Shown here: in pieces, positions 2,549 to 44,846 of the stretch
How positions within the stretch are numbered: the first letter of the stretch is position 1
How the letters are laid out: every line of letters starts with the position of its first letter
Assembly (NCBI GenBank): GCA_964402565.1
Contig: CAYOCJ010000001.1
Location: 32,079-96,078, forward strand
Source: an uncultured Gammaproteobacteria bacterium
Lineage (GTDB): Bacteria > Patescibacteriota > Patescibacteriia > UBA1558 > 2-01-FULL-52-15
DNA length: 64,000 bases
Direction of reading: 5' to 3'
Notes under the pieces: model-generated
What the model was told of the DNA's origin: nothing
Seen by the model: the letters and a program-made list of their open reading frames with translations, nothing else
Databases searched by the model: none
Program-made: the position numbers and the translations under genes

Positions 2549-4048
2549 ATGACTGAGGCTGCTCCACAAAAAAATGGCGCCAAATGGTTAGTGCTCCTGA
2601 CCGTCATTGTCGGTACTTTTTTGGGGCGGCTTGATCAAACCATCGTCAACCTGGCTTTGCCAAAGATGATCGATGATTTCGGCATTTCGGTCACGGCCGC
2701 AGGGTGGATCGCGACAGCATATATTCTTGCGAACGCTATCTTCGTCCCGATCTGGGGCAAGCTCGGCGACACTATCGGCCGAAAAAAAGTCTATGTGTTA
2801 GGCTTCATCGGTTTTATCATCGGCTCTGCGCTTGCTGGCTTTTCATGGAATTTAGGTTCTATGATCGTGTTTCGTGTTCTACAGGCCATTGCGAGTTCTG
2901 CGGATTATCCGACCGCGATGGCGATCCTTGCGGTGACCTTCAAAGAAGGCAAAGAACGCGCACAGGCACTGGGGATCTGGTCTTCATCTTTTGCCGCCGC
3001 TGCCGTATTCGGTCCGTTACTCGGCGGTCCGCTCATCGACAACTTTGGCTGGCGGTCCATCTTCTTGATCAATATTCCTGTCGGCCTGGTCGGCCTGCTC
3101 ATGGCCTTCGTGTATGTGAAAGAATCTGTTTCCGAGCGCAAGACGAAAGTATTTGACTGGTGGGGGGCGATTACGCTGGGTGCGGCGCTCGCAGCCTTAG
3201 TGCTGGTACTTGATAAAGGTCTTGATTGGGGATGGCTCTCGGTGAAAAGCATGATCACCTATGCTGCGACGGTTGTTTTCACCTACATTTTCATACGCGT
3301 GGAGAAACATCACCCAGAACCGATCGTCGATCTGAAATTTTTCCAAAACAGCACTTTCGTCAATACGATCATCAATAATTTTATCGTTTTCATGGGCATG
3401 ATCGGGAGTCTTTTCTTGATCCCGATCTTCGCGCAGACCTTTTTGGGCTATGATGCGACTGAAACCGGCTATCTTTTCATACCGATGGCCGCCGCGCTGA
3501 TGATCGGAGCGCCGATCGGCGGCCAGCTCGTGGGTAAGGTACAGGCGCGCTATGTCATTGCGGCGAGTACTTTTTTATCAGGCTGTGCAATGTATCTTTT
3601 CTCGCTTCTTGACCCAAGATCAAGTGCCCTGGATATCATAGTGCCTCTTGCATTCATGGCTTTCTCATTAGGATTCGGTATGGCACAGCGCACCACAACT
3701 ATCACGTCAGCAGTCCCTACGAATGAAGTTGGTGTTGCTTCATCTATTCTGGCGTTGGCGCGTAATATTGCCGGAGCATTCGGCATTGCGGTTTTTGGAA
3801 CGATTTTACATAATGCGATCGAACGCAATGTACTCGACATCGCCCGCCAGAGCACCTTGCATCTGACCGACCCGACACAATACGGTCAGGCCATCGGTCT
3901 GATGTCGCTCAAAGCACAGATCTCTTCGTATGGGACTGTGTATGCGGTTGCTGCGGCGATCATGATCGTCGGTGCAGTCAATGCATTCTGGATCAGATCG
4001 CCAAAGAAGCAGGAAAAAATTAAAGCCAGCGACTTGATGATGGAGTAA
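2549..4048 (+). CDS. MFS transporter, DHA2 (EmrB/QacA) drug-resistance family, 14-TMS type
   Basis: About 500 aa and highly hydrophobic. Motif GRLDQTIVNLALP...G.LGD.IGRKK is typical of the DHA2 family. Last gene of the marR-hlyD-hlyD-mfs unit. Confidence 0.8.
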   Translation: MTEAAPQKNGAKWLVLLTVIVGTFLGRLDQTIVNLALPKMIDDFGISVTAAGWIATAYILANAIFVPIWGKLGDTIGRKKVYVLGFIGFIIGSALAGFSWNLGSMIVFRVLQAIASSADYPTAMAILAVTFKEGKERAQALGIWSSSFAAAAVFGPLLGGPLIDNFGWRSIFLINIPVGLVGLLMAFVYVKESVSERKTKVFDWWGAITLGAALAALVLVLDKGLDWGWLSVKSMITYAATVVFTYIFIRVEKHHPEPIVDLKFFQNSTFVNTIINNFIVFMGMIGSLFLIPIFAQTFLGYDATETGYLFIPMAAALMIGAPIGGQLVGKVQARYVIAASTFLSGCAMYLFSLLDPRSSALDIIVPLAFMAFSLGFGMAQRTTTITSAVPTNEVGVASSILALARNIAGAFGIAVFGTILHNAIERNVLDIARQSTLHLTDPTQYGQAIGLMSLKAQISSYGTVYAVAAAIMIVGAVNAFWIRSPKKQEKIKASDLMME

Positions 4049-4063
4049 TGGTTACGAATAACT

Positions 4064-4193
4064 CAAAACTCACCTTTTAGAGGTGAGTCATTGTGACGGG
4101 TACTCCGTAGATCCGCAAGGAGCGAAGGAGGATGGGGTTGCTATCTGCGTGTCGGCAGGCAGGGATGAGAAGGTTGGGAAACTTTTAATTTAT
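4064..4193. repeat. Mosaic island repeat, copy D: hairpin module actcaccttttagaggtgagt plus the ggatgagaaggttgggaaacttttaa module
   Basis: The same hairpin core (cccacc tttag aggtggg variants) and the ggatgagaaggttgggaaactttta block recur at 7194-7268. The hairpin core recurs in all copies. Confidence 0.6.
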
Positions 4194-4312
4194 GTTATCC
4201 CTTGGAAGCGTATGGTCAATTGGAAGATGTAATATTCCCATCGATAATTTCAAGCACTGCAATCTCGAGGTCGCTTTTAAATATACTTTTTTGAAATTTC
4301 CATTTTACAATT

Positions 4313-4753
4313 CTACTGATCTAACGTATAAGGTAAAACTTCGCCACTTTTTTTATACTCTAAACCATTTTTCATACCAAGAGTAAACATAATTGCTGGG
4401 ATGACGATAAGTATAATTAGTACTATTATCCACCCGACTCTTTTTAATCGAGGATAGACAGCAGATAAAAAAATACCACTCAAAATAGCAAAGGGAGCGG
4501 AAAAAAATAAACTAATTCCTATTATATCACTGGTGCTCCAAGTGCCCCTCGTTATATGTCCATATGCAGCTAAGTCATGACCAACCATGCCAGCCGCAAT
4601 AAAATTGTTCCAAGAAACCCATGTATAGATGCTCCATAAAAAAGCACGTATAATCCGATCATTAAAAGCATTCTTAGGTGCTGGTTTTGATTGTGAATTA
4701 TATTCTTCCATATTTATTGTTAATTTAAGTATAGAAATTACATTATAGCACAA
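4313..4753 (-). CDS. hypothetical small integral membrane protein (island cargo)
   Basis: ORF with 3-4 predicted TM segments. Likely true start at the internal MEEYNSQ (about 4712). No recognisable family. Confidence 0.4.
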   Translation of the reverse strand: MCYNVISILKLTINMEEYNSQSKPAPKNAFNDRIIRAFLWSIYTWVSWNNFIAAGMVGHDLAAYGHITRGTWSTSDIIGISLFFSAPFAILSGIFLSAVYPRLKRVGWIIVLIILIVIPAIMFTLGMKNGLEYKKSGEVLPYTLDQ

Positions 4754-4880
4754 AACCCAGTTTTAGACTGAGGCTTTATGACGGGTGGCGTCGCCACGTT
4801 CTACGTGGCTTTACGGAGTGGCAAACTCCATTTGACGCTTTATTTACAACACAAAACCCACCTTTTAGAGGTGGGTCATC
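4748..4880. repeat. Mosaic island repeat, copy C (module order permuted relative to copies A and B)
   Basis: Contains gggtggcgtcgccacgttctacgtggctttacg followed by gcaaactccatttgacgctttatttacaacacaaaacccaccttttagaggtgggtca. These are the same blocks as in 6096-6200 and 8264-8365, but in the opposite order. Confidence 0.6.
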
Positions 4881-5009
4881 AATTAGGTTTTGATTTCAAA
4901 TGGGCGGTTTTCGGAAGTATTGATCTTGTATACGAAAAGGAAATAGATATAGCTTCGGAAACGATTATTCGTTTGCCGGAAATCACTTTTGCTAATCCTC
5001 CAAAGAAAA

Positions 5010-5061
5010 ACGCCGCGTGAGCTTGTAAGCTTTTGACGCGGCGTTAGGTTATTCTTTTTTT
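5010..5061. terminator. Intrinsic terminator-like hairpin (acgccgcg...cgcggcgt) flanked by an A-run and a T-run; plausibly bidirectional
   Basis: Stem of about 8 bp with an inner palindrome agcttgtaagct, followed by a T-run (ttattcttttttt). Confidence 0.4.
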
Positions 5062-5266
5062 AGGAGAGATGTGCGAATTTTTGGATACACATACTCTCCT
5101 GGTTGTTCCATGCACCATCCTTCTGGGGAGCCAGCTGGCGTAATCGGGTCTCTCAGCCAAGGGAAGAGTATTAAGAGACAATCCCTTAAGCCCTCCTTAT
5201 AGACGACAAGTCCACTATGAGCAGGGTTCAAGAATTTAAATTGTAAAACCGCTTTTCAAGAGGGTT

Positions 5267-5986
5267 TTACGAACTTTGTAGAATCTTCAACGTACTTATG
5301 AGTTGTTCAATTGTTGGATCGAAGCTTTGTTGAGGTTTGCGCATTTCGTCCATAAACCAAGCTTTCGCTGCATCAAGATCGCCGCTGTCACCTGAAAATG
5401 GTGTAAATCCTCCTTCGGTAATAATGAGGTTTGGGTACTGTTGATTTGCTAAAGGCACTAGATAGTTGTATCCAATGTCAACAGAAAGGATATTAGTTAG
5501 CACACAATACTGGAGTACTTTCAACCCATTCAAATCTATAACCTTCGGAACTGACACAGCTGCGATGGTACCTGAACTCTTCATGATAGCAGTTTTGAGA
5601 TCTTCAGTAGACTTTTTAAGATCAAGCGGTTTTGCTAGACTGTTGTTCGTATTGCTGTTAGGAGCCTCAATCGTAAGATAGGAATGGGATCCAACTTTAT
5701 CAACCGTATCCATTATCAGCCACAACCCCACTGTCCTACCTCCATTGTCTTTACTGACTAATCGGGTAATTGATACATTAGGCGGATGTCTAAACTCAAT
5801 GCCAAGTTCTTGATCCTGATACTTAGGCCATAAGGATGTATCTGTAATGTCAATCAGGTTTGCAGTATTTGTACCTGTTATCTCCGAGGGCTTCCATTTG
5901 TTTACACATATAAGCGCAACGAAAATAGACACTCCTATCACAAGAATGAAAAGTATGAATAAAAGTAGTTTTGCATTATATTTCAT
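5267..5986 (-). CDS. hypothetical membrane-anchored protein (island cargo)
   Basis: N-terminal TM helix (LLLFILFILVIGVSIFVALICV) then a soluble domain. No family recognised. Confidence 0.45.
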   Translation of the reverse strand: MKYNAKLLLFILFILVIGVSIFVALICVNKWKPSEITGTNTANLIDITDTSLWPKYQDQELGIEFRHPPNVSITRLVSKDNGGRTVGLWLIMDTVDKVGSHSYLTIEAPNSNTNNSLAKPLDLKKSTEDLKTAIMKSSGTIAAVSVPKVIDLNGLKVLQYCVLTNILSVDIGYNYLVPLANQQYPNLIITEGGFTPFSGDSGDLDAAKAWFMDEMRKPQQSFDPTIEQLISTLKILQSS

Positions 5987-5995
5987 ATGTACCCA

Positions 5996-6025
5996 ATTCT
6001 AACAGCACAAGATAAACTCTGTCCA
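5996..6025 (-). promoter_or_regulatory. sigma70-like promoter on the minus strand (TGGACA-N18-TAGAAT); the -10 ends about 10 nt before the ATG of the 5267..5986 gene, implying a leaderless mRNA
   Basis: Read on the minus strand: tggaca gagtttatcttgtgctgt tagaat tgggtacat ATG. The -35 hexamer lies inside the repeat module. Confidence 0.35.
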
Positions 6026-6235
6026 GCGTCGTCGCGACGGCTTTAATTTAGAGTTCAAAGTCCTTCTAGGGGTGCATATATTTTCTACTTTTTTGGCAAA
6101 CTCCATTTGACGCTTTATTTACAACACAAAACCCACCTTTTAGAGGTGGGTCATTGTGAAGGGTGGCGTGGCCACGTTCTACGTGGCTTTACGCCATGGG
6201 GCGGCTACCCGCCCGCCGGCAGGGATGAAAAACTG
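6021..6235. repeat. Mosaic island repeat, copy B (about 190 bp, nearly identical to copy A at 8191-8385)
   Basis: Only about 4 mismatches to 8197-8385 over roughly 188 bp. Contains the palindrome gtcgcgac, the hairpin cccacctttt agaggtggg, cgtggccacg, and gccatggggcggctac, which is identical to the 3' end of tRNA-His. Confidence 0.7.
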
Positions 6236-6244
6236 ACAAATCTA

Positions 6245-7189
6245 CTAGGCCACCGTATTTGAGTCGGCAGCTTGTATTTGTGGAGTTGATTTTTTGAGGC
6301 AGATCTTGCTGAAGAAGTAAAATAAGTAGATCGCTACAATATCCTGAATCACAAATGAGATTAGATCTATTGTTTTTGGCGCTGCTCCTGGTTTAGAGGG
6401 GTTTATCATGCCAACGATCGCTAAAAGTATACTGGCCAAGATAAGCATACTATAATATTTGGTGCTTAGTTTGACTACTTCTTGATTATTTTGTGTTGTG
6501 AAATGTTGATTGACAAAAAAGTGCGCCGAAGTCCATATTCCCAGCCACATAAGTAATGAATGCGTGATAAGTACAAAAGCTATTTGCAAGATTTTATTCT
6601 CAATTTGAATACCGTTCGTAAAAAAATCTACAGTAGAGCCTGGATGTATAACCCCTAGAGCTAGTAGAAGTCCTCCAAGTGCAAAATAGAAAATTGGGGA
6701 CACAAAACTCAAAAACATAAGCAATGAAAACACGTGAATGCTCGCAAGATATTTTGCAGGCTTTTTCTTGGATATCGAACCAGTTGGCGCATAGGGTTTT
6801 GCATAAGCCCGGTTAAAATAGATCGTAAAAAATAACGCAAGAATGATTACGAGTGCAATTGTTCCGACGCCCATTAGTAGGGAGGCTTTTTGTACATAAA
6901 CTCCTTGCTGAACATATCCAGACTTTGTTGCCATAAAAACAAAGAGACTAAAGATAGCAGCCACTAACAACTGCGTAATCGAAAAGAGCGTGAGAGAAAA
7001 ACGACTGCCTTGCACTGAGGTATAGAGTAACGACAGAAGAAGACAGGTGAAAAAGATACTTAATACTATCGCCGCGAGAACAACTTCACCACCGAAAGTT
7101 TTGAATAGAAGTCCATCGAGAAAGAGAAGGTAGGCACAATACAATACGATGAATATGGTATTTTTTTTCATGCATATAGTATAACACAA
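6245..7189 (-). CDS. hypothetical polytopic membrane protein (about 8 TM; island cargo)
   Basis: 314-aa ORF, strongly hydrophobic throughout. No conserved motif recognised. Confidence 0.45.
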   Translation of the reverse strand: MCYTICMKKNTIFIVLYCAYLLFLDGLLFKTFGGEVVLAAIVLSIFFTCLLLSLLYTSVQGSRFSLTLFSITQLLVAAIFSLFVFMATKSGYVQQGVYVQKASLLMGVGTIALVIILALFFTIYFNRAYAKPYAPTGSISKKKPAKYLASIHVFSLLMFLSFVSPIFYFALGGLLLALGVIHPGSTVDFFTNGIQIENKILQIAFVLITHSLLMWLGIWTSAHFFVNQHFTTQNNQEVVKLSTKYYSMLILASILLAIVGMINPSKPGAAPKTIDLISFVIQDIVAIYLFYFFSKICLKKSTPQIQAADSNTVA

Positions 7190-7193
7190 AACC

Positions 7194-7268
7194 CACCTTT
7201 GAAGGGTGGGAATTTGTGATGGGGCGGCTGGATGAGAAGGTTGGGAAACTTTTAAATTATTATAGTTT
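7194..7268. repeat. Mosaic island repeat, copy E (hairpin core plus the ggatgagaaggttgggaaactttta module)
   Basis: acacaaaacccacctttgaagggtggg then atggggcggct then gatgagaaggttgggaaacttttaaatt. Shares blocks with copies A, B and D. Confidence 0.55.
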
Positions 7269-7356
7269 TGTGCGACGATTGTTCAGCATAAATTATTCAT
7301 ATCGCCTGATCAAACCCGTTGACTAAGTACTCATCTGACATTTCAAATCCCATTGT

Positions 7357-7962
7357 TCATTTGAAATTAGAATTCATTACAGGCGAGAATTCCGCAAGTT
7401 TTGAGATATCGCCACTTATTTTTTCAAAAATACAAGCCCAGCTTCTTTGCAGAGAAGGAAGTGATCGCTCAACTTCTATGAGTTTTCCTGCCGCTTCCAT
7501 TCCGAAGATATGGATATATCCTGCTCCGGCAAGAATATTTACCAAAATATGCTCCTGCACTGCCAGCTCTTCTCCGCTGAATTGGTGGGCAATAGGATTC
7601 CATAGTTTCTCTGCGGTCGTATTATTCGCGAAGTAACCAAAAAAAGTATGACACAGCTCATGAAGCACAACGGAGGCGGCGTGATCCAAATCCTGATCAA
7701 TGAAAAAAGTCAGTGGATCATTGAACGGGATAATCCCTTGCTGGCGATGCACAGGATAGGCAAGCCAAAAATCAGCTAGCGTCAAACCTCTTGCAGCATA
7801 GAATGCAAACACTTTATCATTTATCTTTTTCCAATGTGTCCCGAACTCAGTCGCGAAGCGCCAGCCTTCGGTCACAGCATCTTTAGATAACAAAACACCA
7901 ACCTGGGAAGCAAGTGTGCGGTCATAGATAGGTGAATAGCGAAAGTATAATTGTGTTGCCAT
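7357..7962 (-). CDS. HExxH-motif protein, putative zinc-metallopeptidase-like (island cargo)
   Basis: Contains VVLHELCHTFFGY (HExxH) in a cytoplasmic-looking 201-aa protein. Family not identified. Confidence 0.4.
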   Translation of the reverse strand: MATQLYFRYSPIYDRTLASQVGVLLSKDAVTEGWRFATEFGTHWKKINDKVFAFYAARGLTLADFWLAYPVHRQQGIIPFNDPLTFFIDQDLDHAASVVLHELCHTFFGYFANNTTAEKLWNPIAHQFSGEELAVQEHILVNILAGAGYIHIFGMEAAGKLIEVERSLPSLQRSWACIFEKISGDISKLAEFSPVMNSNFK

Positions 7963-7985
7963 ACTGAAATGAGTTTACTGCATTA

Positions 7986-8111
7986 TTATAAAAATGAGTA
8001 GAGCCCGGGATTCCAGTGATGGAACCCCGGGCCCCGGCCGACGAACTCGAAACCATTGTCACTAACAGGATAACCGTAAGTGATGACCAACGGCCGCGAG
8101 GCTTTATTCAT
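7986..8111 (-). CDS. unannotated small ORF (41 aa, MNKASRPLVITYGYPVSDNGFEFVGRGPGFHHWNPGLYSFL) with a strong Shine-Dalgarno sequence, directly upstream of the HExxH gene
   Basis: GGAGAAAGGAG lies 6 nt upstream of the ATG. Below the 60-aa cutoff of the ORF track. GC-rich hairpin (gcccggg...cccgggc) inside its 3' half. Confidence 0.3.
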   Translation of the reverse strand: MNKASRPLVITYGYPVSDNGFEFVGRGPGFHHWNPGLYSFL

Positions 8112-8168
8112 AACTCACTCCTTTCTCCTCAGATTCGTGAAAGATGTCAAAAAACGATTTGACTTGTT

Positions 8169-8197
8169 ACCATAGAAGGACTTCGAGAATGCGTCAA
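8169..8197 (-). promoter_or_regulatory. sigma70-like promoter on the minus strand (TTGACG-N17-TATGGT) upstream of the small ORF and HExxH gene
   Basis: Minus-strand reading: ttgacg cattctcgaagtccttc tatggt. The -35 lies at the edge of repeat copy A, at the same relative position as the -35 in copy B. Confidence 0.3.
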
Positions 8198-8385
8198 GCG
8201 TCGTCGCGACGGCTTTAATTTAGAGTTCAAAGTCCTTCTAGGGGCGCATATATTTTCTACTTTTTTGGCAAACTCCATTTGACGCTTTATTTACAACACA
8301 AAACCCACCTTTTAGAGGTGAGTCATTGTGACGGGTGGCGTGGCCACGTTCTACGTGGCTTTACGCCATGGGGCGGCTACTGGGA
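8191..8385. repeat. Mosaic island repeat, copy A; overlaps the 3' end of tRNA-His
   Basis: About 98% identical to 6021-6213. In minus-strand orientation it supplies a hairpin plus T-run (cccacctctaaaaggtggg ttttgtgtt), i.e. a terminator immediately 3' of tRNA-His. Confidence 0.7.
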
Positions 8386-8443
8386 ATCGAACCCAGGCAT
8401 CTAGGACCACAACCCAGTGTTCTGCCATTAAACTATAGCCGCC
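8369..8443 (-). tRNA. tRNA-His (anticodon GTG) with a genomically encoded G-1 and encoded CCA
   Basis: Reverse complement gives G-GCGGCTA TA GTTT AATGGCA GAAC A CTGGG TTGTGGT CCTAG ATGC CTGGG TTCGATT CCCAG TAGCCGC C CCA. Cloverleaf is canonical, with the extra 5' G pairing C73. Confidence 0.85.
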
Positions 8444-8492
8444 ACGTAAAGGTTCCTACGGAACCCACGTGGCTGGCCAGTATATTTGCCGG

Positions 8493-8786
8493 CTACGTCG
8501 ATTCCTTAGTCTTCCTAGGTTTGTTTTGAAAGTGAAATTTTAATTGATGATCTAAGTATTTTTCCCCTCGTCCGCTTTTCAAGAACTTTTCTCTTCCTAG
8601 CGCATCATCTTTTATAGTATATGCTTCATAATAAATCAATTGCCATGGTTTTTTTGAGACCGTTGAATTGTTGAGCCCTGCATTGTGTTCTTGTAGCCGT
8701 TTTTCAATATTTTCTGTAAACCCTGTGTATAGAGAGTCATCTGCTTCACTTTGTAAAATGTACACAAAATACATAATCTTTTTCAT
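8493..8786 (-). CDS. GIY-YIG nuclease-superfamily protein (UPF0213/YhbQ-like)
   Basis: MKKIMYFVYILQSEADDSLYTGFTENIEKRLQEHN... shows the GIY-YIG motifs (YVYIL...LYTGfT...R..EHN). Start chosen at the internal Met because the longer ORF would run into tRNA-Arg. Confidence 0.65.
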   Translation of the reverse strand: MKKIMYFVYILQSEADDSLYTGFTENIEKRLQEHNAGLNNSTVSKKPWQLIYYEAYTIKDDALGREKFLKSGRGEKYLDHQLKFHFQNKPRKTKEST

Positions 8787-8823
8787 TTCTGGCTGCGCCA
8801 CGTGCTTGCGCAGCAAGTATACG

Positions 8824-8898
8824 TGGTGCCCCCGGAGGGAATCGAACCCCCATCTCAGGCTTAGAAGTCCCAAGCTCTATCCATTGAGCTACGGGGGC
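8824..8898 (-). tRNA. tRNA-Arg (anticodon TCT), encoded CCA; anticodon stem unusually weak
   Basis: Reverse complement: GCCCCCG TA GCTC AATGGATA GAGC T TGGGA CTTCTAA GCCTG AGAT GGGGG TTCGATT CCCTC CGGGGGC A CCA. The loop CTTCTAA is the canonical Arg-UCU loop. The stem TGGGA/GCCTG has only about 4 pairs including two G-U. Confidence 0.6.
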
Positions 8899-22279: not shown

Positions 22280-23044
22280 TTAAGGCTGCGAAGCAGCGCG
22301 GGCATGTTTGATACTGCGCGCGGTTATGGAATTTCCTTGTCCTGCTTTCCGACTTTTCTTTTGTACCAGGCGTTGAATAGAACGCGTGCTGATCCGCGAA
22401 GCTGCTGCTCTCTTTGTCTTGGCGCGGTCATGACTCGTAAAAAGGTAGGGAATCTGATCAGTACGCTGTTTCAGATATTCCGTGATATAGAAAAGGGTAT
22501 GGTTATTCAGCTGAAGCGTCCGTTCGCGCCTCCCGGCTACAAAAAGTTTCTTTTTTTTGGCATCAAAGTTTTTGACCAGCAGTTCTGTTATTTCCTGCAG
22601 GCGTATATCGCTTCCCCAGAGCAACTCGAGCATGGCACGATCTCTCGACACAAGGATAGAAGCCGCCTCAGACCTCTTTTGATCAGCGAGCAATGAGGCT
22701 ACTGCTCGCTCGGATGGGACAGCGGGGGCATGGTATCGAACTGGCTGCAGTTCAATGCGCCGGTAATCTATACGGCGTTCAGATTGCGGCAGCCATCGCA
22801 AGAAACTTCGCAATGCGATGAGGTGATAATTGATCGTTGTACTCTGCAATTTCGCTGATGCAAGCTCGCTTTGGAATTGTTGAACCTTCTTTCCTGTTAT
22901 ATCGGCGGTTGAGAGAATATGGTGACCTCGAAAAAATCTATTCAAATAATCTCGGTAATGAGCAATGGTCAAATCGGCGCTGCCCTTAGACCGTTTGAGG
23001 TAGCTTGCGAATTGACTGAGCGTTGCGTCTATGGAGCGTGCCAT
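22280..23044 (-). CDS. tyrosine recombinase XerC/XerD-like, apparently C-terminally truncated (ends just after the H-x-x-R box; catalytic Tyr region absent)
   Basis: N-terminal SAM-like core-binding domain (LSQFASYLKRSKGSADLTIAHYRDYL), catalytic Arg region (AMLELLWGSDIRLQEI), and ...ARSIKHARAASQP then stop. Confidence 0.45.
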   Translation of the reverse strand: MARSIDATLSQFASYLKRSKGSADLTIAHYRDYLNRFFRGHHILSTADITGKKVQQFQSELASAKLQSTTINYHLIALRSFLRWLPQSERRIDYRRIELQPVRYHAPAVPSERAVASLLADQKRSEAASILVSRDRAMLELLWGSDIRLQEITELLVKNFDAKKKKLFVAGRRERTLQLNNHTLFYITEYLKQRTDQIPYLFTSHDRAKTKRAAASRISTRSIQRLVQKKSRKAGQGNSITARSIKHARAASQP

Positions 23045-44769: not shown

Positions 44770-44846
44770 GCGCCTGTAGCTCAATTGGTTAGAGCATTCG
44801 GCTTATATCCGAACGGTTCCTGGTTCGAGTCCAGGCAGGCGCACCA
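44770..44846 (+). tRNA. tRNA-Ile with anticodon TAT (UAU), encoded CCA
   Basis: GCGCCTG TA GCTC AATTGGTTA GAGC A TTCGG CTTATAT CCGAA CGGTT CCTGG TTCGAGT CCAGG CAGGCGC A CCA. Cloverleaf is canonical. Confidence 0.8.

Follow-up and report, generated by a model that had tools for sequence, protein, structure and literature searches.

An integrase-less cassette array at the 3′ end of a tRNA-His gene in a Patescibacteriota genome: probable tandem accretion by site-specific recombination

Introduction

Integration at the 3′ ends of tRNA genes is well known, and units that are flanked by attachment (att) sites but carry no integrase are called cis-mobilizable elements (CIMEs). A scheme of sublocations for integration in tRNA genes was reportedly put forward by Williams in 2002. 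In Dehalococcoides, 20 bp from the 3′ end of ssrA, the tmRNA gene, are repeated at the boundaries of tandem islands, and a conserved motif that does not belong to ssrA is found just upstream of each repeat (PMC3146451). Sixteen of these islands carry the serine recombinase DsiB, and 15 others that have no integration module were proposed to be CIMEs (PMC3146451). In Prochlorococcus, tycheposons arranged in tandem, and what remains of them, are set apart from one another by partial tRNAs (bioRxiv 10.1101/2020.12.28.424599). Here we describe a 4.2-kb island (positions 4144-8368) in a 64,000-nt stretch from an uncultured bacterium placed by GTDB in the Patescibacteriota (GenBank assembly GCA_964402565.1, contig CAYOCJ010000001.1, positions 32,079 to 96,078 of the forward strand), referred to below as the window. 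The island consists of four or five cassettes of 0.6-1.3 kb each, located between a tRNA-His gene and a gene coding for an MFS transporter, and copies of the last 11-12 nt of the tRNA-His gene, a sequence that we call O, recur along it.

The reading that we consider probable is that the island grew by tandem accretion of att-bounded, integrase-less cassettes through site-specific recombination at O, and that these cassettes were mobilized in trans. The locus resembles the Dehalococcoides ssrA islands in that, downstream of a small RNA gene, tandem units are delimited by direct repeats of the 3′ end of this gene, in that the crossover point is marked by a conserved motif without alignment to the RNA gene, located just upstream of each repeat, and in its low G+C content (GC) and many units without an integration module. 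It differs in its target, which is tRNA-His, and in its repeat, which is 11-12 nt long versus 20 bp. While the Dehalococcoides islands are multi-kb, the units of this array and of a second one, found in Candidatus Komeilibacteria, are 0.4-2.1 kb long and hold one or two genes. Unlike the 16 islands with DsiB, no unit of either array carries an integration module, and no cognate autonomous element was found in the loci compared here.

Results and Discussion

Repeats of the tRNA-His 3′ end

The tRNA-His gene (Table 1) ends in GTAGCCGCCCCA, whose reverse complement lies within the plus-strand 16-mer gccatggggcggctac. O is defined as the tRNA-derived 11-mer TAGCCGCCCCA plus one base, T. A preliminary description of this locus had assigned the tRNA 3′ acceptor strand and CCA to positions 8364-8380; the match is real, but the gene is on the minus strand, and within the 16-mer at 8365-8380 only 8369-8380 is tRNA, while 8365-8368 (gcca) is 3′ flank. 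The exact 16-mer occurs at two sites, 8365-8380 and 6193-6208, which confirms the recurrence reported at the end of one repeat copy (copy B) and corrects its position, given before as 6198-6213. The 12-mer ATGGGGCGGCTA is repeated, always in the orientation of the tRNA, exactly at 6197-6208, with one mismatch at 7219-7230 and with two at 4132-4143. The copy with one mismatch corresponds to the partial copy atggggcggct noted previously, which is indeed present, at 7219-7229 and not at 7231-7241. The degenerate fourth copy, ATGGGGTTGCTA, at 4132-4143, was missing from that account.

All four O copies are found on one strand, within 4.3 kb directly downstream of tRNA-His, with no others in the 64 kb, and all of them stop at the identical position inside the tRNA. 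An arithmetic estimate gives about 0.008 chance occurrences of an exact 12-mer in 64 kb, both strands considered. When up to two mismatches were allowed there were 9 matches to the 12-mer versus 3.7 expected, and none of 100 shuffled sequences (0/100) reached 9. These statistics and the embedding of the match in longer repeats rule out a chance match. As a background check, 1.77 Mb of DNA including 44 tRNAs (the window and the loci compared with it) were inspected, and the 3′ 11-mer was repeated downstream only in the case of the tRNA-His of the window. At one of its boundaries the island has the intact tRNA gene, and at the other a directly repeated tRNA 3′ end. The probable explanation is the one that the preliminary description had proposed, site-specific integration with an att-like duplication of the 3′ end of tRNA-His, and the suggestion made there that integration happened more than once agrees with the presence of four O copies along a chain of cassettes.

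Two other interpretations of the remnants were discarded. They are not pseudo-tRNAs or minihelices, as they have no 5′ acceptor partner and no T-arm, and ARAGORN finds nothing. The plus strand is complementary to the tRNA 3′ end, as a retroelement primer-binding site would be, yet no reverse transcriptase is present, and the cargo genes are read from the other strand.

Reassortment of the arms at O

Figures of identity between junctions show where the exchange would have taken place. O is the sole sequence common to all junctions, and pairwise comparison of both sides of the junctions showed that homology always ends at O. Junctions A and E have the left arm in common (31 nt, 97%) but not the right arm, and junctions B and F have the right arm in common (182 nt, 98%) but not the left arm; the right arm of A shares with those of F and B the terminator part alone. 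The alignment of all repeat copies that the preliminary description had recommended thus gives arms that are reassorted around O, which argues for recombination at O rather than for plain duplication of a 190-bp module. Because homology stops at O and the arms reassort, the exchange is placed within O, where the end of one unit would be joined to the start of the next. A Logan contig from an independent assembly (L003) matches 6179-8226 of the window with 100% identity and confirms junctions B and E.

These comparisons bear directly on the alternative that only segmental or homologous duplication, by unequal crossing-over or Campbell-type events, took place downstream of tRNA-His, the tRNA bases being passengers and unrelated genes having come to lie between the copies. 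A 188-nt direct repeat, D1 (6021-6208 and 8193-8380, 98% identical), ends with an O copy and reaches 176 nt outside the tRNA, and a repeat of this length suffices for RecA-dependent recombination. Parts of the module also recur without O at 4735-4900 (repeat families D2-D5), and no integrase is present. Nevertheless, we regard duplication by itself as unlikely: O is found without the module in junction E and with a different insert in junction A, the four copies share one end position inside the tRNA, the arms reassort at 11 nt, which is too short for homologous recombination, and the same left arm and O are found with different right arms in an organism whose Vut_1 is 29% identical. Duplication may explain the origin of the B/F pair itself. 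The near-identity of this pair over 176 nt past the tRNA would not be predicted from a plain short att core, and it is best read either as two cassettes of one right-arm family or as a recent homologous, Campbell-type event of the block R1-cassette 1-E-cassette 2.

The right arms are built from recurrent parts. In copy F of arm R1 (176 nt), the 37-nt hairpin H (8331-8367) is followed by TCACAATGA and a Rho-independent terminator (8302-8324), by the motif GAGTTTGCCA (about 8264-8273) and by the block CCCCTAGAAGGA, and the arm ends at the -35 region of a promoter-like site (8197-8169). Copy B ends likewise at a promoter-like site (6025-5996, TGGACA-18-TAGAAT), and in arm R2 the sequence TGTTATACT resembles an extended -10 element located 6 nt before the ATG of the cassette 2 gene. 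Scanning and folding detected a terminator-like hairpin after each O copy, and the right arms were seen to end in promoter-like sites. A less regular region, A′, begins with a terminator and an S1 block that is 100% identical to copy B over 61 nt, GAGTTTGCCA and hairpin H, and continues with the O-like sequence ACGCCACCCGT, CATAAA and a second terminator, and then TGCTATAAT; it has no clean O and is probably a decayed junction.

Hairpin-forming inserts of 27-37 nt were observed precisely where the CCCCAT of O would otherwise meet the CACAA of the right arm, at 8331-8367, 6159-6195 and 4096-4131 in the window and at junctions 7255, 3342 and 1020 of the Komeilibacteria locus L091. The insert of copy A in the window is homologous to a Komeilibacteria insert (CCTCCTTCGC...CTACGGAG). 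Such inserts could have arisen as mini-insertions that duplicated their target, or they could be scars left by cassettes since lost.

Table 1. Coordinates of the features in the window and in the related loci
Feature	Position	Strand	Description and evidence
Convergent MFS gene	2549-4048	+	Stop codon abuts the B′ flank
Ancestral tRNA-His flank (B′)	4049-4131	minus	36-nt hairpin insert 4096-4131, then TCACAATGACTCACCTCTAAAAGGTGAGTTTTG
Junction A, distal, attR-like	4132-4193	minus	Left arm L1 4163-4193 (97% identical to E), small hairpin, degenerate O TAGCAACCCCAT 4132-4143; repeat family D12
Cassette 4 cargo	4313-4753	minus	132/146-aa membrane protein; no family match
Degenerate junction A′	4735-4900	minus	Repeat families D2-D5; fold -54.6 kcal/mol, z -6.3
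Cassette 3 cargo	5267-5986	minus	239-aa protein with N-terminal hydrophobic segment; no family match
Right arm R1, copy B	6021-6195	minus	98% identical to copy F; hairpin H 6159-6195
Junction B	6196-6240	minus	G+C-rich left arm L2 TTCATCCCTGCCGGCGGGCGGG and exact O 6196-6208; confirmed in L003
Cassette 2 cargo	6245-7171	minus	308/314-aa multi-pass membrane protein; no family match
Right arm R2	7183-7218	minus	CACAAAT, terminator hairpin 7192-7210, then TGTTATACT; terminator/promoter scan, folding
Junction E	7219-7260	minus	Left arm L1 ATAATTTAAAAGTTTCCCAACCTTCTCATC 7231-7260 and O with 1 mismatch 7219-7230; repeat family D12
Cassette 1 cargo	7357-8109	minus	Structured leader/41-aa ORF 7984-8109; 201-aa HExxH protein 7357-7962
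Right arm R1, copy F	8193-8368	minus	188-nt repeat D1; terminator/promoter scan; fold -36.4 kcal/mol, z -5.2
O, proximal copy	8369-8380	minus	Last 11-12 nt of tRNA-His; attL-like
tRNA-His(GUG)	8369-8442	minus	Intact, CCA encoded; ARAGORN, Rfam tRNA 63.6 bits
Junctions of the Komeilibacteria array	L091 9354, 7255, 5267, 4195, 3342, 2691, 1020, 599	minus	
GIY-YIG loci	L104 10001-10332; L114 3156-3500; L116 and L117 10001-10339		

The native flank in a relative

Only one close relative was found among 185,579 species representatives. In this genome (locus L004), SufS is 81% identical to that of the window, and the tRNA-His gene is identical over 77/77 nt. The tRNA-Arg and tRNA-His genes are 15 nt apart, and there is no island, no hairpin insert and no GIY-YIG gene. 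The CCA of tRNA-His is directly followed by TCACAATGACTCACCTCTAAAAGGTGAGTTTTGTGT and then by a convergent gene; thus, TCACAATGA and its terminator stand directly 3′ of the tRNA, and they are identical over 33/33 nt to the flank found in the window past copy A, the distal one. What follows the most distal repeat of the island is, then, the native flank of a relative free of the island. The order of tRNA, insert, remnant and native flank is the classic attR/B′ arrangement. This comparison with a relative, which the preliminary description had suggested, shows the native flank without full synteny.

Composition of the island and its cargo

GC is 0.36-0.44 across 4049-8368 versus about 0.50 on either side, an atypical composition of the kind expected from an island. 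The cargo genes of the window are all co-oriented with tRNA-His. They code for mutually unrelated proteins, mostly membrane-associated or without family assignment, and none of the cargo open reading frames (ORFs) had a match above threshold in Pfam, PHROG, NCBIfam or PADLOC or was recombinase-like. A membrane protein of the cargo had one weak sub-threshold PHROG match. The 201-aa protein of cassette 1, which contains an HExxH motif, had two weak sub-threshold matches to Pfam peptidases (E 0.07-0.09) and none in PHROG, NCBIfam or PADLOC, and its homologues sit in unrelated, tRNA-free contexts.

The family of the HExxH protein is tiny, with 12 proteins among 5.8 billion. One of the homologues (L084 2088-5084) is encoded directly downstream of a YcaO-nitroreductase fusion, an arrangement that hints at a role in peptide modification or processing. 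The leader of the gene (7975-8110, minus strand) is highly structured (-56.9 kcal/mol, z -5.4) and includes a 16-bp terminator-like hairpin followed by a U-run, as well as a 41-aa ORF with a good ribosome-binding site. This leader, for which there was no Rfam family match, could act as an attenuator, be a small RNA or encode a leader peptide.

A second array in Candidatus Komeilibacteria

Scanning of metagenomes with 19 nt of the left arm L1 produced 10 loci. Eight of them matched by chance; L091 and L095, the remaining pair, are parts of the same sequence, and both read GTTTCCCAACCTTCTCATC, TAGCCGCCCCAT and then a terminator. L091 encodes a GIY-YIG protein identical to one named Candidatus Komeilibacteria, which identifies the organism as a bacterium of the candidate phyla radiation (CPR). 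It contains tRNA-Arg and tRNA-His genes followed downstream by eight junctions in one orientation (Table 1), each composed of a left side (GTTT(C/G/T)CCAAC-N9, with or without a hairpin), O, and a right side (with or without a hairpin, then C(A/G)YRA, a terminator and TTTTGYGTT). The junctions of both organisms have in common the left-arm motif (GTTTCCCAAC-N9), O and the terminator, and their cargo is unrelated. In L091, where the units measure 0.4-2.1 kb, the cargo includes proteins of 657 and 605 aa, two small membrane proteins, a glycerophosphodiester phosphodiesterase (GDPD), a receiver-like protein and a helix-turn-helix (HTH) protein, with no recombinase and no similarity to the cargo of the window. 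The homologues of the GDPD protein are also found in unrelated, tRNA-free contexts. In L104, a locus that holds this array with its flanks, GC is 0.35-0.49 in the array versus 0.52-0.61 in the flanks.

Reassortment is apparent here as well. Junction 1020 has the left side of junction 5267 (70 nt, 96%) and the right side of junction 7255 (70 nt, 97%), and junctions 4195 and 599 are alike on the right side (80 nt, 89%) and have different left arms. Similarity extends across the two lineages: junction 4195 is 97% identical to junction E of the window over 32 nt, and the right arm of the first junction is identical over 45/45 nt to the native flank of L004. Since the Vut_1 orthologues of the window organism and Komeilibacteria are only 29% identical and yet non-coding arms of 30-45 nt are alike, there must have been horizontal exchange or a strong constraint on the sites. 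Blocks of the type GTTYGCCA...CCCCTWSAGGGA are common to right arms of both genomes and also stand directly upstream of the chromosomal Vut_1 gene in L104. GTTYGCCA is a direct copy of the left-arm motif and may be an arm-type binding site, of which it is reminiscent.

With both arrays at hand, the case against which the preliminary description had warned, a module of about 190 bp copied in a manner unrelated to the tRNA, fails on four counts, because junction E has O without the module, the arms reassort at O, the native flank is found in L004, and eight Komeilibacteria junctions have the same architecture.

A different proposal would be a lineage-specific intergenic repeat, partly derived from a tRNA, that acts as a terminator-promoter or RNA-processing module and is kept by selection or gene conversion. 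Such a module would account for the strong terminator hairpin and the promoter-like sequence that follows it in every junction, for the GTTYGCCA and CCCCTWSAGGGA blocks that are present both in the right arms and upstream of Vut_1, and for arrays that are invariant across eight Komeilibacteria contigs. We find it improbable. The copies outside the tRNA that have up to two mismatches to O, counted in the window and in Komeilibacteria and with A′ excluded, are all (10/10) in one orientation just downstream of tRNA-His, and O-type copies are absent from the other 60 kb of the window and from the flanks in L104; in these partial genomes there is none of the dispersal in both orientations that characterizes repetitive extragenic palindromes (REP) or miniature inverted-repeat transposable elements (MITE). 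Moreover, this proposal offers no reason why a functional module should hold the exact 11-nt 3′ end of the adjacent tRNA, and the low GC, the unrelated cargo and the native flank at the distal end would be left unexplained. A search of Rfam (E<=1) with the window and L104 returned just the two tRNAs and no RNA family in the modules.

Several peculiarities of the Komeilibacteria locus were noted. The intact tRNA-His (acceptor GCGATCA) lies inside what appears to be a disrupted older tRNA-His (L091 9354-9720, minus strand, equivalent to L104 10390-10760). The 5′ 25 nt of the older gene (GGCGGCCATAGTTTAATGGTAGAAC) are about 100 nt upstream of the intact gene, and its 3′ end (GGCCGCCCCA) with an L004-type flank is about 190 nt downstream. 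On the flanks of the intact gene, 18 nt of its 5′ end recur as an inverted repeat, and duplicated 5′ fragments of tRNA-Arg are found upstream of the GIY-YIG ORF. The GDPD gene (L091 3341-4042, minus strand) has lost its own stop codon and extends through the left arm (extra residues KQFANSSI) to a TAG formed by the first bases of O. All GDPD homologues end at FPDRL, which points to read-through and discards the idea that the left-arm motif originated as the C-terminus of a lost gene.

Search for a recombinase

Recombinases were sought with phmmer among the ORFs of at least 80 aa of the window, L004 and L091, using as queries XerD, gamma-delta resolvase and lambda Int sequences. The accompanying Pfam scan of 72 ORFs of the window considered the best 25 of 80 families, so that the recombinase screen rests on phmmer and on targeted Pfam models. 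The sole phmmer matches were an ORF of the window at 22280-23044 (minus strand) and its orthologue in L004 (1653-2426). The former has a Pfam SAM-like N-terminal domain and part of the catalytic domain, but the match stops at position 137 of the 172 of the model, and the protein ends before the region of the catalytic tyrosine; it may be derived from a Xer-type recombinase and bind DNA without being active. The short form of this integrase-like protein is conserved in both the window and L004. An integrase beside the att site, usual in tRNA islands, was not found among the ORFs of the island, and a cognate autonomous element with an integrase was found neither in the window nor in L004 nor in the flanks of L091/L104, while the metagenome scan yielded the Komeilibacteria array only. 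Scans of viral contigs with three junction patterns gave chance matches inside coding regions only, and phage and plasmid collections had no match to the island.

Two candidates for the array enzyme were rejected. The GIY-YIG nuclease is encoded near the tRNAs in both genomes with an array, but the Komeilibacteria subfamily is also located 5′ of tRNA-Arg in three CPR genomes that have no array. The 197-aa HTH protein of L091 was considered as an IS607-like serine recombinase; the HTH region alone matches, with no similarity in the catalytic domain.

The lack of integrase genes could also be the outcome of decay, if larger islands or prophages carrying an integrase had been inserted at tRNA-His and had later lost it together with most of their genes. 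Tandem integration followed by decay is documented for tRNA and tmRNA islands, the O copy at junction A is degenerate, and A′ looks like a decayed junction. However, neither integrase fragments nor pseudogene debris were found in the loci searched, and the units are compact (0.4-2.1 kb), each with a terminator, a promoter and intact ORFs. Recombination genes are absent from all of the approximately 12 units of the two genomes, and the arms of these units are short and conserved across distant hosts. Decay of larger elements is, for these reasons, a poor candidate.

Proposed pathway

Figure-like reconstruction of the events follows from the order of the parts in the junctions. In the proposed pathway, repeated conservative site-specific recombination would occur within the last 11-12 nt of tRNA-His, or at an existing junction. 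The incoming molecule would be a circle with the order left arm (GTTTCCCAAC-N9, with or without a hairpin), O, right arm and cargo, where the right arm would comprise a CACAA-like sequence, a Rho-independent terminator, a GTTYGCCA/CCCCTWSAGGGA block and a promoter. Exchange with the O of the tRNA would regenerate the 3′ end of the tRNA and supply a new terminator, set the cargo under its own promoter and displace older cassettes away from the tRNA. Each junction would then consist of the left arm of one cassette and the right arm of the next, and the original chromosomal flank would end up past the most distal copy. The enzymatic and site-specific nature of the recombination, the circular intermediate and the order of events are all deduced from this layout, as is the putative role of the right arms as terminator-promoter units. 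Because no cassette encodes a recombinase, the cassettes would be mobilized in trans, now or formerly. As for their origin, a speculative possibility is that cassettes may arise by excision of DNA downstream of tRNA-His in donor genomes, since every right arm resembles the 3′ flank of tRNA-His and one of them is identical to the native flank of L004.

Some of the observations weigh against tandem accretion by recombination at O, in addition to the reach of the B/F repeat beyond the tRNA discussed above. No integrase or recombinase was detected with Pfam, PHROGs, NCBIfam, PADLOC or phmmer in the approximately 12 cassettes of the two arrays, and the sole integrase-like ORF is 14 kb away, does not include the region of the catalytic tyrosine and is also present in L004, which has no array. 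No circular or excised form and no presence/absence polymorphism were seen; eight Komeilibacteria contigs from different samples, L091 among them, have an identical array (99.5-99.97% identity, no indels). Logan contigs of the window organism break at the repeats. The L004 locus is rearranged, with the tRNA pair inverted relative to NifU/SufS, and is not a perfect syntenic empty allele. The O repeats of Komeilibacteria (TAGCCGC...) mismatch the tRNA-His that is currently intact (TGATCGC...); because of this mismatch and of the apparent disruption of the older tRNA-His, that array is probably not growing at the intact tRNA-His now. Finally, tandem accretion does not account for the hairpin inserts, after each of which stands ACC(C)RT, a degenerate second O-like sequence that echoes CCCCAT.

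A bolder and more tentative version, which we consider possible but doubtful, is that of an integron-like gene-capture platform of ultra-small (CPR-type) bacteria, with the tRNA-His 3′ end as its fixed attachment site and a trans-acting recombinase that is not a neighbor of the array. Such a platform would insert and shuffle mini-cassettes composed of a terminator, a promoter, one or two genes and a conserved left motif, and very distant lineages would exchange them.

Comparison with other systems

Tandem accretion at O can be set beside other families of elements as well. The tycheposons, on which the work was reportedly published in Cell in 2023, form tRNA-adjacent islands with full or partial tRNA copies between insertions, newer elements that push the older ones inward, remnants without an integrase and niche-type accessory cargo, and the arrays are similar in these respects. 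Unlike tycheposons, which have a tyrosine or large serine recombinase and usually replication genes, the arrays have none of these, their units are far smaller and more regular, and the second array is in CPR/Patescibacteria. Classical tRNA-targeting elements (P4-type, integrative and conjugative elements, genomic islands) likewise have an intact tRNA at one end, a 3′ fragment with CCA at the other and the native flank at the distal side; the arrays differ from them in having no integrase, multiple nested copies and very short units.

The likeness to integrons resides in an ordered array of small (0.5-2 kb), co-oriented cassettes with unrelated cargo and one fixed anchor, in conserved site-like separators with a variable center, and in cassettes without a recombinase, which implies action in trans. 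Unlike integrons, there is no intI, attI or Pc beside the array, the genes next to its anchor being the GIY-YIG ORF, tRNA-Arg and NifU. A tRNA 3′ end serves as the anchor, each cassette seems to come with a terminator and promoter of its own, and the junctions are not imperfect palindromes of the attC type: GTTTCCCAAC has no complementary partner in the right arms, which carry the direct copy GTTYGCCA instead. Folding of the junctions produced the terminator and insert hairpins only, with no match in Rfam (no dedicated attC model was run). Xer-dependent elements (integrative mobile elements exploiting Xer, IMEX, and pdif modules) use dif-like 28-bp sites with two inverted 11-bp arms. O and its flanks have no dyad symmetry, and the Xer-like ORF of the window is without the tyrosine region. 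What the arrays do have are att-flanked units in direct orientation that carry neither integration nor transfer genes, 4-5 in the window and 7-8 in L104. They work, therefore, like att-bounded tandem accretions or CIMEs and belong neither to the integrons nor to the Xer modules. Unusual features are the architecture of mini-cassettes without an integrase and the conservation of this architecture across lineages, and tiny regular units, no integration genes and arms conserved across very distant hosts set the array apart.

If tandem accretion at O is correct, genome-reduced and largely uncultured bacteria would have a compact route to acquire and swap single accessory genes, mostly for membrane or secreted proteins, by a system that would parallel integrons, with a tRNA gene as its basis. 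Gene flow between deeply separated lineages is indicated by arms of 30-45 nt that are nearly identical in organisms with orthologues of about 29% identity. Metagenomes can be surveyed for further arrays of this type, and for the missing recombinase, by means of the junction consensus, GTTTNCCAAC-N9..50-TAGCCGCCCCAT and then a terminator.

Neighboring genes

A GIY-YIG gene, absent from L004, is inserted between tRNA-Arg and tRNA-His in the window (8443-8826; ORF 8493-8783, minus strand). It is bracketed by two CCACGT...ACGTGG hairpins, a stem that otherwise occurs in the window only in the three H hairpins. A related GIY-YIG subfamily is found directly 5′ of tRNA-Arg or overlapping it in four CPR genomes (Table 1), three of them without an array. 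The gene looks like a separate tRNA-associated selfish or co-transcribed element. Elsewhere in the window, a tRNA-Ile gene with the anticodon TAT (UAU) is located at 44770-44846; tRNA-Ile with a UAU anticodon is uncommon in bacteria.

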